This document shows positions 53,415 through 58,650 of a stretch of DNA of 64,000 bases, in pieces. This DNA comes from Candidatus Hermodarchaeum yapensis (lineage in GTDB: Archaea > Asgardarchaeota > Hermodarchaeia > Hermodarchaeales > Hermodarchaeaceae). A program made the translations under genes and the position numbers. The notes below the pieces were generated by a model that was not told where the DNA came from, did not search any database, and saw only the letters and a list, made by a program, of their open reading frames with translations. The stretch is taken from assembly GCA_016840405.1 (NCBI GenBank), contig JAEOSK010000003.1:66917-130916 (forward strand), read 5' to 3'. Position 1 is the stretch's first letter, and each line of letters opens with the position of its first letter.

Positions 53415-54071
53415 ATGATTATTCCCAAACAAATGCCTCTCGAAAAAATCTTGAAAACCATCGAAGGCATCGAAAACATCCTCGTCGTCGGCTGCGACGG
53501 GTGTTCCGGAATTTACCAAGTTGGTGGCATCAAACAGGCAGAAACCCTAGCCACACTAATCAAAATGCACAGACAACTGAACAACGAACCCGGCGAAATC
53601 CGACATACAATTGTCTTACGACAATGTGACCAGCAACTAGTGGCCACAACACTTCGTCCACAAATGGAAAATATTGATGCATTACTCTCACTAGCCTGTG
53701 GCGTAGGCCCACAAACCCTCATCGACGTCTTTCCAGACCATAAAATCCTAACAGCGGTTGATACATTCGGCATGGGTGGCAAAGATCGAGAACTGGGACA
53801 TTTCTTCGAATATTGTAGCGGGTGCGGTGACTGCCTGCTTAACGACACCGGTGGCATCTGCCCCATGACCCGCTGCCCCAAGGCACTCGTCAACGGCCCA
53901 TGCGGCGGAATGCTTGACGGCAAATGCGAAGTAGGCGACTACAAAAATGACTGCGCTTGGTTTCTCATCTATGAACGGCTAAAGAAACTGGGTCAACTCG
54001 ATAAGTTCAAGAAATATCGTGAACCCCGTGATTGGCGGGTCGCCCAATCACCACGTAAATTGGAGATTTAG
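53415..54071 (+). CDS. metV: Methylenetetrahydrofolate reductase-associated Fe-S/Zn subunit
   Basis: GCDGC, RQCD, ACGVG, CSGCGDC...GGICPMTRCPK.L.NGPCGG...CE...CAW. Confidence 0.9.
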   Translation: MIIPKQMPLEKILKTIEGIENILVVGCDGCSGIYQVGGIKQAETLATLIKMHRQLNNEPGEIRHTIVLRQCDQQLVATTLRPQMENIDALLSLACGVGPQTLIDVFPDHKILTAVDTFGMGGKDRELGHFFEYCSGCGDCLLNDTGGICPMTRCPKALVNGPCGGMLDGKCEVGDYKNDCAWFLIYERLKKLGQLDKFKKYREPRDWRVAQSPRKLEI

Positions 54072-54087
54072 GTGACGGTGAAACGAA

Positions 54088-55017
54088 ATGGCAAAACGTG
54101 AAGCCTATAGCAAACTGATGGAAGAAATTCATGCTGGTAAATTCGTGTACACTGGCGAACTTGAACCCGAAAAAATCGGGGACATGGAAGAAGTCATCGA
54201 AGGCGCAAAGAAACTCGTCGGTCATGTCGTCGCTGCCAACGTCACTGACATCCCCCAAAGCTTCGCCTACATGAACTCCCTCGCCCCCTCCTACATGATT
54301 CAAGAAATCGCAGGTTTAGAAGCCGTCTGCCAAATGACCTGCCGAGACCGCAACCGACTCGCCATGTTTGCAGACCTCCTCGCCGCGGGTGCATTAGGTA
54401 TCAAAAACATTCTTGCACTAACAGGAGACCATCCGAGTCTAGGTGATCAACCTGAAGCCAAACCTGTTTTTGACTTGGATTCTGCCAGCTTAACTGCCCT
54501 CATTCGAAAAATCACCGATGAAGGCATTGACCTCAATGGCCACGAAATTGAACACCCACCCAAGTTCCACGTGGGCGTCGCAATCAATCCTGGAGCAGTA
54601 CCCCTAGAACCAGAAATTTTGAAGCTCGAACGCAAGGAAGCAATTGGAGCCGAGTTCGCACAAACCCAAGTCGTCTTCGAAATCGAATCAGCAAAAGAAT
54701 TCATGAAAGCCATCAAACACGTGAAAGTCCCCACCCTCATCGGTATATTCCCTTTAAAGAGCTTCAAAATTGGTCAGTGGATGAATAATTTTGTTCCAGG
54801 TGTTACAATTCCTCCAAACCTCCTTGATCAACTAAAAGAGCTAAAGAAAATCGAAGACAAACCGCGTCGAAAAGAAAAGATAGCAGAGATGAATGTCGAG
54901 TATTTTGGTGAGATTATCAAAGAAATTCGAAAGACTACCCAGGCGGCCGGGTGTCATATTATGGCTGTTAAGTGGGAAGAATTAATACCTCAACTAATAG
55001 AGGTTGCAGGCAGATAG
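54088..55017 (+). CDS. metF: Methylenetetrahydrofolate reductase
   Basis: NVTD, TCRDRNR, ALTGDHP and AQTQ motifs. Confidence 0.92.
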   Translation: MAKREAYSKLMEEIHAGKFVYTGELEPEKIGDMEEVIEGAKKLVGHVVAANVTDIPQSFAYMNSLAPSYMIQEIAGLEAVCQMTCRDRNRLAMFADLLAAGALGIKNILALTGDHPSLGDQPEAKPVFDLDSASLTALIRKITDEGIDLNGHEIEHPPKFHVGVAINPGAVPLEPEILKLERKEAIGAEFAQTQVVFEIESAKEFMKAIKHVKVPTLIGIFPLKSFKIGQWMNNFVPGVTIPPNLLDQLKELKKIEDKPRRKEKIAEMNVEYFGEIIKEIRKTTQAAGCHIMAVKWEELIPQLIEVAGR

Positions 55018-55026
55018 GGATTGGAA

Positions 55027-55933
55027 TTAACAATCCCCAGCCAACGAAAGATCCACCGGAACTACATCAGATTTTCTTACCTCTGTTGATCGCCAGTCTT
55101 CTACGTCTTTCTTTTTGTATCCGCTTGAAGGCGGAGCGAGCAAGGCCCATTTAATTGCGTCATTTCTTCCCTTAGTTATTAGTTCCCAGCTAACGCTCAT
55201 CCGACCGGTTTGATAGAGTGTTATTCGCATAGGAACGATTCGAGTTTTTACACCAAGACTAGCGAGCAGTATTTTTTCACTAATTAGTAGTTCAGGTGGA
55301 TTATCATAGATCAATTTTCGAAGCTTCCTGATTCTTTCAGTGAAACAGAAGTGTCGGGGATATTGGGAAGCTTTCTTCAGTCTTCCCCAAGACAGCTTCA
55401 TATCGAAATGGGCAATGGTATCACTATTTTTCTTGCGGGTATTTTTTATTGCTAGACGCAAAGACTTCTTTCAATTCATCAGAAATCTTAGGTGTGAAGG
55501 TGTATTCTTCAGCTTTTTCTCCTGCATCCAGCACCACGCTCCAACCTATTCGGAAAATTACCTTCCTGCCATATATTCCAAAGGCTCCATCCTCGGGAAT
55601 TACTTCTTCAAGATAGGCGCTTCGTTCGCGAATACATTTCTTTTATTAGTTCCCAGGATCCGACCTACTACTAAGAATCTGCTGTAATCTAGTCTCAGCA
55701 TAATCTGAGTGATTTATTCCAACTGGAACTCTGTTGTTGTCAGTTCCAATAATTAAATATCCTTTTCCGCTTGTTTGATAAAGATGGTTCGCAATCGCAC
55801 AAACATCCTTTGCAAACTCATCCCTATTCTTTCTAGTTCTCAAATGAGCTGAGTATTGTGCTTTGAAATCTTTTTTCGATGATTCGTTAGTTGAATGAAG
55901 TTCACGTATTTTTTTGCGATAAAACCACTCCAA
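55027..55933 (-). pseudogene. Decayed cargo: Schlafen/AlbA_2-like N-terminal fragment plus downstream ORF fragments
   Basis: ESSKKDFK...EFAKDVCAIAN...GYLIIGTD...VGI (55646-55933), then stops and frame breaks. Confidence 0.65.
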
Positions 55934-56071
55934 ATCACAAAGAAGTATATGTGTGTGAAAAGAAAAAGGTTGAGGAGAGGTAGGTAATGGATTTTTGAAT
56001 CTTCGTATGTATCAAAAATTGAGGGTAGTTTTCGGAATATTAAGAGACCAAAAATCCTAAGTGACTAAATA

Positions 56072-56299
56072 TTCGTTCCAGGTGTGACGATTCCTGAGCC
56101 GATGATGACTAAGTTAAAGGAACTAAAGGGTATTGAGGATAAACCGACGCGGAAGGCGAAAATAGCTGAGTACAACATTGAATACTATGGTGATTTCCTT
56201 CGTGAACTGCGGAAGACGACACATGCGGCGGGCTGTCACTTGATGGCCGTTAAATGGGAGGAATTGATTCCTCCGATTATTGAAGCTTCAGGCGGTTAA
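56072..56299 (+). pseudogene. Orphaned metF 3' fragment (75 codons plus stop)
   Basis: 51/75 aa identical to the MetF C-terminus by hand alignment, no indels. Confidence 0.9.
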
Positions 56300-56307
56300 T
56301 TAAAGTC

Positions 56308-57435
56308 TTATTTCCGATTGGTGTTGAATTCCGATACGACATCACGTAGTCGTGTTAGATTTTCGAGTACCATAGTGTCGCCGTGTTTCCAGTCCCAAGA
56401 TCCGAGTCCGCATTCGGGTCCTGCGAAGGGGGTGCGGCCGGTTCCGTATCGTTGGATGGCGGTGTGGAGGCGTTTTTGCATGTCGGTTCTCGGTTGTAAG
56501 TATGGGTGGTATTGTCCGGATTGGATTTGTGTCCAGACGGTTTTGAGGTCAGCGTTGGGTGGAATGGTGGGTCCGTCGGTTCGCATGATGGCGGCGCGGA
56601 TGTATTTGTCGTGGTCCATTAGCCATTCTCGGTTTACGATGACATGAAGGTGGGCTTCAAGGAGGTTCCAGTTGGCTCGGGCGAGTTGGTGGTAGGGGGA
56701 TGCGTGGAGGTGGAGTCCACGATAGTGTTGTTGTGGAGTGGCGGAGAAGATTTTGTTCCAGTGGGTGATTAGATGTGAGAGGTTTTCGTCTGTTTCGGTG
56801 TCCATGAAGAGGTCGCCAACGCCAGTTACGCCGATGGATGGTTCTTCGAGGGTGAAGATTTCTGGCTTCAGATACTTGGTTTCGACGTTGGAATTTTGCA
56901 TAAAGTGTTGAACTATAGTTGAGAAGGCTTCGATGAGAGAAGTATCATATCGTGAACTGACACCCATGCTTCGCCAAATTCGTGTTAGTAATTCAAAGGG
57001 ACCGGTGACGCACACGCGATATCTGATACAGTCGAGTTCAAGTTCTTGGCAAAGGGTTTTGGCATGTTGTTTCAAGGCGATAAGTTCGGCGATGTTCGCG
57101 TGGTTGGGTGGGAGTTGAATGGTTGAGCCATCCCAGAGATAGTTGTCTTTGTGTTTTTGTAAGCCACGCCCGTGTCGGATGATGGGATCGAGAAATTGGT
57201 TGACCATGTCGCGTGTGTGACTGCTTTGTACGTAGCTTGGGGTACTGAGGTGGGGACCTAATGCTGTGAGTTTTTGTTTGAAGGCCATGTTGTGACTGTG
57301 TGTGAAGTAGTCTGCGTCGTTTGTGCTTCTTCCATCTTCGGTGTCAGCAGCGCCTTGTGCATAGCGTGTTGCATTGATGTTTATGAGTGGAAAGCTGCCT
57401 ACATCGGTTGTTCGTATGGAAGAGAATCCTTTCAC
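56308..57435 (-). CDS. Core (single-barrel) MetE-like methionine synthase / methylcobamide methyltransferase
   Basis: TTDVGSFP, VTGPF, EEPS, LHLH and GPECGL motifs. Confidence 0.7.
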   Translation of the reverse strand: MKGFSSIRTTDVGSFPLININATRYAQGAADTEDGRSTNDADYFTHSHNMAFKQKLTALGPHLSTPSYVQSSHTRDMVNQFLDPIIRHGRGLQKHKDNYLWDGSTIQLPPNHANIAELIALKQHAKTLCQELELDCIRYRVCVTGPFELLTRIWRSMGVSSRYDTSLIEAFSTIVQHFMQNSNVETKYLKPEIFTLEEPSIGVTGVGDLFMDTETDENLSHLITHWNKIFSATPQQHYRGLHLHASPYHQLARANWNLLEAHLHVIVNREWLMDHDKYIRAAIMRTDGPTIPPNADLKTVWTQIQSGQYHPYLQPRTDMQKRLHTAIQRYGTGRTPFAGPECGLGSWDWKHGDTMVLENLTRLRDVVSEFNTNRK

Positions 57436-57510
57436 GAGTATCTAGCCTCAATTGAATTAGGGTGAAGTGAATATTCTAGCAAGAAGGAGCAAGGGCACTT
57501 TAGTTTTTGT

Positions 57511-58650
57511 CTAAGCGCTTGCCTTTTTGGCTGTAAATTTTTTGGTGGGTTTCTTCGCAGGTTCTTTGGCGGGCCATCGGCTGCCATGTTCTAATGCACG
57601 GTCGATGGCAATTTCTGCGATAGCGCTGGAATGTTCCAAGATTTTGCCAAAGGCGGAAAAGATGTTTTCGAGACAAAACATGGCTTTCTGATGAGGGCCA
57701 AAGAGGGCACAACTTTCCGGGGTGAGTTTGGGGAGCATTTCTTCGCAGAGCTTGACGAGATGTTGTTCCATGAGTTTTTCGGCGGTTTGACGCATGGGGA
57801 GAAAGTTGTCGATTTCGTTGATGACATGATTTGCGGCTTTATCGTCTCCAAGTAGCATGGCTTCTGCGGAGGTTGCGTAGATGCGATGGACATGGTTGCC
57901 GGTTTTGAGGGCAAGGTTGAGGAGATCTTTGGGGCATTCTTCTTTATCTAAAGAAACGACCGATTCGGCAATGGATTTGGCGTGGTCCGCTACATTTTCG
58001 ATGCGTTGAATGAACATTAGATATGTGAGGCAATCCATTGAGTCAATGCTTAGTTCATTCATGAATCGTGGATCTAGCAGGGCAGCGCGTAGCTGTTTGA
58101 ATACTAGGAAGTAGAACTGGTTAACATCTTCATCGAGCCCGATGACGGTTCGGGCTAATTCAGTGTCGCGAATTTGAAGGGCGGAGAGGGCATCTACGAG
58201 CATGGTGGAAGTGATTCGATGGGCTAGTCGCATGCTTTTGGGAAGGTCGAGTTGGTTTAGTTTCATGAGCGATTGGATGACGATTTCATTTGTGCTGGCA
58301 TCGATGATTTGTAAGCCGGTGAGCATTCGGACGCGCTGTCGGACCAGTGATTGTTGTTCTGGTGTGAAAACCCCAGTCGAACGGATATGGATAATTCCGA
58401 AGTTATTGAGATAGGCGGCAATTAGACGGCGTTCTAAAATGCCTGGTTCGTCTTCTGGATCAACGATGATTTCTTGTTCCGGAGGTGTATCGGTGACCCC
58501 TTTTACAGGGTAAATGGCGAGGGAACCATCGCGTTGGGGAAGCAGTATCACATGATCCGAGGAATCGAGCTTGTATTTCCCTGCCCATGTTTTAGGGATT
58601 GAGATAACGAGCGAGGATTTGCCAAGCCGCATGATTTTTCGTTTTTCCAT
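57511..58650 (-). CDS. phoU: AbrB-PhoU phosphate uptake regulator
   Basis: RKIMRLGKSSLVISIPK.W AbrB domain; D.DVN and IENVADHA PhoU motifs. Confidence 0.9.
   Translation of the reverse strand: MEKRKIMRLGKSSLVISIPKTWAGKYKLDSSDHVILLPQRDGSLAIYPVKGVTDTPPEQEIIVDPEDEPGILERRLIAAYLNNFGIIHIRSTGVFTPEQQSLVRQRVRMLTGLQIIDASTNEIVIQSLMKLNQLDLPKSMRLAHRITSTMLVDALSALQIRDTELARTVIGLDEDVNQFYFLVFKQLRAALLDPRFMNELSIDSMDCLTYLMFIQRIENVADHAKSIAESVVSLDKEECPKDLLNLALKTGNHVHRIYATSAEAMLLGDDKAANHVINEIDNFLPMRQTAEKLMEQHLVKLCEEMLPKLTPESCALFGPHQKAMFCLENIFSAFGKILEHSSAIAEIAIDRALEHGSRWPAKEPAKKPTKKFTAKKASA

Follow-up and report, generated by a model that had tools for sequence, protein, structure and literature searches.

Why should metF, the gene for a core enzyme of C1 metabolism, possess two different 3′ ends in one archaeal genome? 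We addressed this question in a stretch of 64,000 nucleotides from Candidatus Hermodarchaeum yapensis (hereafter the window), which lies on contig C42 of a 2.7-Mb metagenome-assembled genome (MAG), denoted G000; all the relatives used for comparison are also MAGs. In this window, a complete metF is followed at a short distance by a second, diverged copy of its last 75 codons. From the analyses described below, we consider it probable (about 0.7) that metF was once invaded by a cassette with a free-standing LAGLIDADG homing-endonuclease gene (HEG), and that the 1.28-kb stretch is what remains of this cassette after its decay.

We at first examined whether the repeat is real. The last 75 codons of metF (54790–55017, tail A) recur at 56072–56299 (tail B), at an offset of 1282 bp, and G000 holds exactly two copies of this tail. 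At the protein level, 51/74 residues are identical and 63/74 are similar, with zero gaps or stops (BLASTP E 4e-40), and the DNA identity is 65%. With nt 1 of metF placed at position 54088, the boundary of the duplication is at nt 703 and both copies share the 11-mer GTTCCAGGTGT at nt 706–716, which codes for the conserved V-P-G-V within an FVPGV motif. Upstream of this 11-mer, the similarity between the copies did not exceed that of shuffled controls (local alignment z < 2), and therefore the similarity of the tails starts abruptly. A similarity upstream of the 11-mer suggested by MAFFT failed the shuffle test and is ascribed to chance; an HMMER match stretching the tail remnant of the relative G012 to residue 185 failed it as well. 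The GC content was 0.39 for the attached tail (54800–54999) versus 0.455 for the downstream tail (56100–56299).

The Logan contigs of four sequencing runs were then inspected for the metF junctions. A single 3915-nt contig of run X1 spans 53841–57600 with 0 differences. In run X6, which comes from another sample and study, one contig (54282–55576) joins metF, tail A and the insert, and a second contig (55578–56650) joins the insert, tail B and the next gene. Contigs from run X7, an estuary sample of another year, also cross both junctions.

Next, we compared metF across the genus; in all 9 complete relatives the gene is 930 nt long with zero indels. The N-terminal part of the gene (N-part) is 78–90% identical between species. 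The tails fall into two classes that are 58–67% identical to each other: A-type tails are found in G000, G004, G008, G010 and G012, and B-type tails in G001, G005, G007, G009, G013 and G003 (a partial tail in the last). The genome closest to G000, G005 (88% nt identity in the N-part of metF, 98% aa identity in the partner gene metV), has a single B tail and no insertion. Tail B is 96% identical in aa and 87% in nt to the functional tail of G005 and is B-type in every diagnostic column, whereas tail A reaches only 63% nt identity with the tail of G005. Tail A has 75–78% nt identity to the A-type tails of G004, G010 and G012, and 63–65% to B-type tails. Because it is tail B that resembles the tail of G005, the downstream tail is, by this comparison, the native one and the attached tail belongs to a foreign allele class. 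The diagnostic columns that separate A from B number 2–3 in nt 1–671 versus 36–45 over 256 nt of the A-type module. As judged from these alignments, metF of G000 is a hybrid of a host N-part and a foreign A-type 3′ module.

These observations agree with a preliminary description of the locus, which had reported the tail repeat 1282 bp downstream with its open frames and abrupt start (now reproduced by BLASTP and by shuffle-controlled local alignment), a GC content of about 39% in the attached versus 45% in the downstream tail, and the downstream copy as the original host tail. It had also stated that a duplication shared by all relatives, with no variable cargo, would speak against a mobile element; we found that the cargo varies between genomes and that G005 is without the insertion.

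The foreign sequence does not begin at the duplication boundary. In nt 672–702 of G000, 6/8 diagnostic columns are in the A state; the A tract thus begins at nt 672, 31 nt upstream of the boundary. Its left edge differs between genomes: G000 and G010 have it before nt 672 and G011 has it between 674 and 686, as would follow from variable co-conversion tracts. In G010 and G011 the tail is a mosaic that starts as A-type and finishes, towards its 3′ end, as B-type, the outcome to be expected if tandem A and B tails recombine and the insert is lost. In G012, the attached A tail is followed by three paralogous ORFs (open reading frames), unlike the cargo of G000, and then by an orphan B tail; the orphan tails of G000 and G012 begin at the same nucleotide (nt 703–705) despite their different cargo. 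G018, from the sister genus, has three metF tails in series.

Between tail B and G005 the ratio of nonsynonymous to synonymous rates (dN/dS) was 0.03, with a dS of 0.82 (0.66 for the N-part), and from these values the orphan tail appears not to have drifted. Synonymous sites are saturated between tails A and B. For G012 versus G004, dS is 0.64 in the A tails although the N-parts are saturated at such sites, which points to a horizontal spread of the tail module. The orphan metF tails at window 56072–56299 and at locus L022 (6881–7108) both keep intact frames, with dN/dS of 0.03–0.04, and a GTG at window 56084 and at L022 6893, respectively, could serve as their start codon; they may be either very recent or under selection.

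The gap between the metF stop codon and tail B is 1.05 kb long and encodes the frameshifted remains, about the C-terminal third, of a protein from a family which we refer to as Xfam. The segment 55424–55639 matches residues 556–627 of the Xfam protein P0002 (47%, E 1e-17) and holds the LAGLIDADG motif 2, 'AYLEEVIPEDG', and the segment 55027–55461 matches residues 639–739 of the same protein (47%, E 2e-29); identity of this wreck to another member, P0004, is 56–57%. The wreck is convergent with metF, its stop codon being 9 bp from that of metF. P0002 itself is an intact 766-aa protein of G016, a member of the sister genus, where its gene is also convergent with metF and ends 3 bp from the metF stop. 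Presence at this fixed site is polymorphic: Xfam is a wreck in G000, intact in G016, a fragment in G017 (where a tail remnant also lies after metF), and absent from G005 and others. Site polymorphism together with copy decay, a trait of the homing cycle, is thus observed at metF. The cargo downstream of metF differs among G000, G012, G018 and G016.

What kind of protein is Xfam? P0002 did not match any Pfam family at E ≤ 1, nor did P0004 at E ≤ 0.001 (LAGLIDADG_1, _2 and _3 were all unmatched), and searches of the Protein Data Bank (PDB) with Xfam sequences and profiles gave nothing significant. The curated LAGLIDADG profiles are not matched because the family is too diverged for them. Intact members have about 640–770 aa, and an AlphaFold2 model was obtained with a predicted local distance difference test score (pLDDT) of 87.5. 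In Foldseek searches all matches at E ≤ 0.001, and nearly all of the matches listed, were proteins of LAGLIDADG fold, namely homing endonucleases, intein endonuclease domains and WhiA. Model residues 358–636 were aligned by VIA-align with the TliVMA intein endonuclease domain (Z 16.6), PI-PfuI (Z 15.7), I-Tsp061I (Z 15.3; 179/204 residues, root-mean-square deviation (rmsd) 2.8) and I-DmoI (Z 14.5; 168/191 residues, rmsd 2.5), and the alignments cover nearly the entire length of the small enzymes. The model has two alpha-beta-beta-alpha-beta-beta-alpha half-domains arranged as a pseudo-dimer. D375 (within 'SDG') and E466 (within 'PE[DE]G', a G following the acid) were invariant in 31/31 sequences of the alignment that was used for both the model and acid conservation. 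They are located at the C-terminal ends of the helices 358–375 and 453–466, which is where the metal-binding, catalytic acid pair of a LAGLIDADG enzyme would be expected. Xfam is therefore most likely, as a structural prediction, a double-motif LAGLIDADG homing endonuclease. The N-terminal 345 residues modelled alone gave a pLDDT of 89 with only weak hints of small helix-turn-helix or winged-helix modules, and a role of this region in DNA binding would be a guess. No serine-recombinase or transposase fold was found among the structural matches of Xfam, those of the N-terminal region included.

A profile search of 1.84 billion representatives recovered 786 Xfam members at E ≤ 1e-3, 239 of which were at E ≤ 1e-30. 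Within the phylum, 63/301 sampled genomes contain Xfam, almost entirely in two families: 14/18 genomes of the window's own family and 44/76 of a second, Thorarchaeota family. The copy number varies (6–7 matches in G000, 11 in G016 and 0 in four genomes of the genus), and many copies are fragmentary, interrupted by stops or located at contig ends. Such a multicopy, pseudogene-rich and patchy distribution reads as the signature of a selfish gene. The fragment in G000 is 53–61% identical to the members P0003–P0006, 47% to the metF-linked copy of G016 and 31–47% to copies linked to hydrogenase genes, which hints at target-specific Xfam lineages. Thorarchaeota members are longer (1200–1600 aa), the first ~100-residue N-terminal module being repeated two to five times before the LAGLIDADG domain (for example L179 4985–9406, G060:C42).

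We observed that the arrangement at metF is not confined to this gene. The recurrent layout consists of a host gene for a conserved enzyme, a convergent Xfam gene 3–99 bp from its stop codon and an orphan copy of the C-terminus beyond. Of the 15 loci examined, 11 have Xfam in convergent orientation to its host gene; the other four have no usable convergent neighbour or are at a contig end. Elements with Xfam alone were found in G016:C73, at the gene for an FAD-linked oxidase, and in G007:C37, at that for a [NiFe]-hydrogenase large subunit. In six species (G000, G003, G010, G011, G012 and G014), Xfam is located at the gene for a 403-aa group-4-type (Complex1_49kDa-type) hydrogenase large subunit, where each genome has 1–4 serial, decayed tail remnants. 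The best-preserved of these remnants all start at the DPCFSC nickel-site motif, and they are full of stops, unlike the intact orphan metF tails. Hydrogenase tail remnants are also present in genomes without an Xfam match (G001 and G013). Ordinary genes separate the successive remnants in G011, and because of this each invasion appears to import donor DNA. The locus L166 of this genome (2350–8567, G011:C45) has four hydrogenase tail remnants spaced by ~2 kb, between which are ORFs of 676 and 335 aa, one of 330 aa and one that is MsrB-like, the functions having been assigned by eye.

Ends of contigs were encountered at both target genes. Variant-strain contigs of runs X1 and X6 end at window 54723–54727, MAG contigs end within metF near the invasion site (G010:C12, G013:C421, G002:C28, G003:C4 and G005:C8), and others end in the hydrogenase gene near residue 313–316 (G011:C31 and G005:C337). 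These breaks suggest a strain-level heterogeneity of tails within the samples.

A mechanism can be proposed that would generate this layout. The cassette would consist of a replacement 3′ end for metF (the A-type tail) placed stop-to-stop with a convergent endonuclease gene. The endonuclease would cut an uninvaded B-type allele near nt ~703 of metF, at the conserved FVPGV codons, and the break would be repaired from the invaded donor. Resection and copying would convert some upstream sequence (here from nt 672), and copying would then proceed through the A tail and the HEG into any donor sequence located beyond the HEG. If the far flank of the donor is too diverged, the copied strand would be joined to the right-hand end of the break, and the native tail, severed at the cleavage site, would remain as the orphan tail B. 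The gene would stay functional because the cassette supplies a tail, which is probably resistant to cutting. Thereafter the HEG would decay, in G000 with the loss of its N-terminal ~450 residues and a frameshift in the remainder, and recombination between the tandem tails may delete the cassette and leave A-to-B mosaics such as those of G010 and G011. We infer the cleavage activity of Xfam, its cleavage site, repair by copying, the end-joined orphan tail and the resistance of the A allele.

Several observations weigh against this proposal. The assignment of Xfam depends on a predicted structure and two conserved acids, with the Pfam LAGLIDADG models unmatched, and the non-cutting regulator WhiA, which has a LAGLIDADG fold, is among the structural matches (Z 12–15). 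The N-terminal region of ~350 residues has no recognisable fold (Foldseek, none at E ≤ 0.001; best VIA-wide Z 5.3). At metF, G012 carries the two tails and no trace of Xfam, and the A-type tails of G004, G008 and G010 are accompanied by no Xfam and by no orphan tail; G005 is also without any Xfam trace at metF. Differences between A and B flank nt 703–726 with none inside, and thus there is no obvious basis for immunity of the A allele. Tail B is without relaxed constraint (dN/dS 0.03), though the HEG that adjoins it is a wreck. Two Thorarchaeota copies of Xfam adjoin conserved genes without a detectable tail remnant. Neither an empty-site contig nor a joint skipping the insert was seen in the contigs of the four runs, which lose rare variants.

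How do other explanations fare? That the locus is an assembly chimera of two co-occurring strains is next to inconceivable: variant-strain contigs do stop near nt ~640 of metF in two runs and the contigs of several relatives do break within this gene, but independent assemblies of single runs, made in different studies, span the two junctions with no mismatch. Co-assembly of strains, of which the preliminary description had warned, is ruled out by these contigs of X1, X6 and X7. A local tandem duplication of the metF 3′ end, with divergence in place and a later insertion of unrelated DNA, would leave two intact copies in the same orientation, as is seen here. It is very improbable, because the allele classes contradict it: tail A shares its class with G004, G010 and G012 (75–78% nt) while tail B is orthologous to the tail of G005 (87%), the two tails are saturated at synonymous sites as against a dS of 0.66–0.82 between G000 and G005, and this sister genome has a single B tail. 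More weight, though still small, is due to the idea that ordinary homologous recombination moves an existing island (A tail, cargo and B remnant), in which Xfam is not the agent but either a passenger or a domesticated DNA-binding protein resembling WhiA. Recombination does produce variable left breakpoints and A-to-B mosaics, WhiA is a non-catalytic LAGLIDADG protein among the structural matches, several A-type loci are without Xfam, and the copy in G000 is dead, yet the structure occurs in several samples. We regard this explanation as unlikely, for it leaves unexplained the repeated duplication at the same codon, at at least four genes, with Xfam always stop-to-stop with the new tail. Moreover, domesticated LAGLIDADG proteins, WhiA for instance, typically lose the catalytic acids, both of which are invariant across the 31 diverse members, and the multicopy, pseudogene-rich and patchy distribution is that of a selfish gene.

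The preliminary description itself had favoured an integrase: a circular element with a substitute metF 3′ end would have crossed over at the 11-mer as its attB and later lost its integrase and cargo. Integrative elements such as e14, in icd of Escherichia coli, may indeed bring along a substitute for the 3′ end of the gene that they target, and the order of a full gene with a foreign tail, cargo and a native tail starting from the shared 11-mer is attL/attR-like; the cargo, moreover, differs between G000, G012, G018 and G016. We nevertheless consider an integrase improbable, even more so than the passenger. A crossover at a fixed core cannot put donor sequence on both sides of that core, whereas variable-length co-conversion during break repair can, and the A-type sequence starts 31 nt upstream of the supposed core, at differing points between genomes. 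The tyrosine-recombinase family PF00589 has only two matches in G000, on contigs C16 and C53, and no recombinase is present among the insert ORFs of G000, G012, G016 and G018, serine recombinases not having been searched genome-wide. At this locus and about 25 related ones no integrase was found, minimal elements at other genes contain the LAGLIDADG gene alone, and Xfam has no serine-recombinase or transposase fold. An IMG/VR scan with the tail alignment found no viral contig with a metF tail, and no relative. Replacement of the metF 3′ end by a mobile element, as the preliminary description had it, is supported, but not the part that made metF the attB of an integrase-bearing element; likewise, an element stripped of its integrase by deletion does not agree with a gap holding the wreck of a LAGLIDADG gene, an intact relative of which abuts metF in G016.

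The closest known parallel to the HEG cassette, by analogy, is provided by the mobile ORFs (mORFs) of fungal mitochondria. Gene hybrids with mORFs were described for atp6 in Allomyces macrogynus, for atp6, atp9, cox2 and nad3 in Glomus sp., and for cob and atp6 in Endoconidiophora (PMC3630166, PMC6279837). They and metF have in common a host core, an inserted foreign C-terminus, an endonuclease ORF and a native C-terminal remnant, and the endonucleases of the mORFs are of LAGLIDADG or GIY-YIG type (PMC3630166, PMC6279837). In both cases the native remnant is nearer to the sister species than the inserted tail (91–98% vs 64–81% in Glomus; 87% vs 63% for metF). The systems differ in the host, a fungal organelle for the mORFs and an archaeal chromosome here. 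They also differ in orientation, the mORF being on the same strand as its host gene and often fused with it in frame, whereas Xfam is convergent. Unlike mORFs, Xfam has 640–770 aa with an N-terminal extension of ~350 aa and no Pfam LAGLIDADG match, and up to four serial remnants with ordinary genes between them are found at one site.

Xfam can also be compared with single enzymes. I-DmoI and I-Tsp061I are archaeal, monomeric and encoded in rRNA introns, and PI-PfuI and TliVMA are intein endonuclease domains. Xfam has the double-motif fold of these four (Z 14.5–16.6 over 165–186 aligned residues, rmsd 2.3–3.3), with one acid per LAGLIDADG helix end (D for the first motif, E for the second), an arrangement which we take to match that of I-DmoI. 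However, it lies outside any intron or intein, has no Hint domain (no Pfam match), has a large extra N-terminal region and is only 12–18% identical to them in sequence. A free-standing endonuclease between genes, spreading together with flanking DNA by break repair, is a property that Xfam would share with the Seg and Mob enzymes of T4-like phages (PMC2790892, PMC2988022). During this 'intronless homing' of T4, co-conversion extends to markers in the flanks, and copies that are themselves defunct can be moved in trans (PMC2790892, PMC2988022). The Seg and Mob enzymes differ in belonging to the GIY-YIG and HNH families, in carrying no replacement gene end and in leaving no orphan gene ends. Elements of the e14 type resemble metF in having a complete hybrid gene, the element and a native 3′ fragment; they differ in using a site-specific recombinase with a fixed crossover, whereas at metF there is no recombinase and the donor sequence crosses the boundary.

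Features of the metF locus in the window, with positions, strands and the properties that define them.
Feature	Position	Strand	Remarks
metV-like partner gene	53415..54071	+	Pfam DUF5981 'Methylene-tetrahydrofolate reductase C terminal', E 9e-34; context, outside the element
metF, putative hybrid gene	54088..55017	+	309 aa; Pfam MTHFR E 2.2e-36 across residues 11–307
Apparent host-derived part of metF	54088..54758	+	nt 1–671; 88% nt to G005
A-type module	54759..55017	+	metF nt 672–930; putative replacement end plus 31-nt tract upstream of the boundary
Shared 11-mer GTTCCAGGTGT, copy 1	54793..54803	+	Left edge of the duplicated stretch
Xfam wreck	55027..55639	-	C-terminal ~185 residues in two frames; frameshift near 55424–55461
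AlbA_2/Schlafen-domain gene, truncated 5′ fragment	55646..55933	-	Pfam SLFN_AlbA_2 E 2.8e-9
AT-rich spacer	55934..56071		Element side of the right junction; GC 0.34–0.36
Tail B, probable orphaned native metF 3′ end	56072..56299	+	Codons 235–309 plus stop, intact
Shared 11-mer GTTCCAGGTGT, copy 2	56075..56085	+	
Gene for 375-aa neighbour	56308..57435	-	Normally directly after metF; marks the end of the insertion

The surroundings of the insert are conserved. The metV-like gene is syntenic with metF in every relative. The gene for the 375-aa neighbour, which has no Pfam family, follows the metF tail in G001, G003, G004, G005, G007, G008, G009, G010 and G013, and the orphan tail in G012; across the genus relatives whose contigs extend past the tail, its product has 60–92% aa identity. 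Inside the insert, the AlbA_2 fragment matches profile positions 1–64 of 118 only and is followed by TAATAA and then, in the same frame, by the Xfam fragment; it represents either cargo or a deletion junction. The spacer next to tail B has no similarity to any metF sequence, and the cargo DNA is unique within G000. In G016, a metF tail remnant at L046 (386–4039, G016:C177) stands beside genes for a protein kinase, an AAA/SMC-type ATPase and a NucS-like nuclease, a cargo that looks defence-related and belongs to the variable region behind metF in this sister genus.

A scan of Joint Genome Institute (JGI) metagenomes yielded only about 10 close metF loci, with zero intact elements. One locus from a distant organism (L057 10329–11352, Ga0190363_1000776; likewise L056) has tails that are ~45% identical. 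There an intact metV-metF pair is followed, 120 bp further on, by a partial and frameshifted copy from metV residue ~110 to the metF end; this 'orphan' is far longer, and there is hardly any DNA between the copies. At L174 (9438–16068, G004:C119), an intact Xfam gene has a 5′ fragment of uvrB (residues ~27–117, 79% identical) at a distance of 112 bp from its 3′ end, and a complete uvrB is 4 kb further on, suggesting a possible mirror-image case in which a 5′ gene end was replaced. The two Thorarchaeota copies mentioned above are convergent with the genes for AdoHcy hydrolase (L182) and ribosomal protein S19 (L181).

Our literature search returned no description of such elements in Asgard or other archaea, and the LAGLIDADG family of Xfam, common in Hermod- and Thorarchaeota, is most likely previously undescribed. 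A family of 786 cluster representatives without Pfam annotation would thereby gain a predicted fold and a likely activity, and the HEG cassette would account for the allele dimorphism at the end of a core enzyme of C1 metabolism. What had been a lone 'scar' becomes a general, testable phenomenon. The natural target sites may be read from the fossil tails, at nt ~703 of metF and at the DPCFSC codons of the hydrogenase large subunits, which would make cleavage assays straightforward and offers a possible new source of long-site meganucleases. For users of MAGs, the finding gives an explanation for contig breaks inside the target genes. The gene-end swapping of fungal mitochondrial mobile ORFs would extend to archaeal chromosomes, in a version that leaves dated layers of past invasions with ordinary genes imported between the layers. 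We propose tentatively, as a possibility that is less likely than not to hold in full, that a large, unrecognised family of giant free-standing LAGLIDADG enzymes in Hermod- and Thorarchaeota repeatedly overwrites the 3′ ends of central metabolic genes (metF, [NiFe] hydrogenases and FAD oxidases), dragging in neighbouring donor genes on each occasion. If true, its members would drive the building of islands and the flow of genes between species in these archaeal relatives of eukaryotes, and the intact orphan tails may perhaps be retained as spare alleles with which the target site can be switched.

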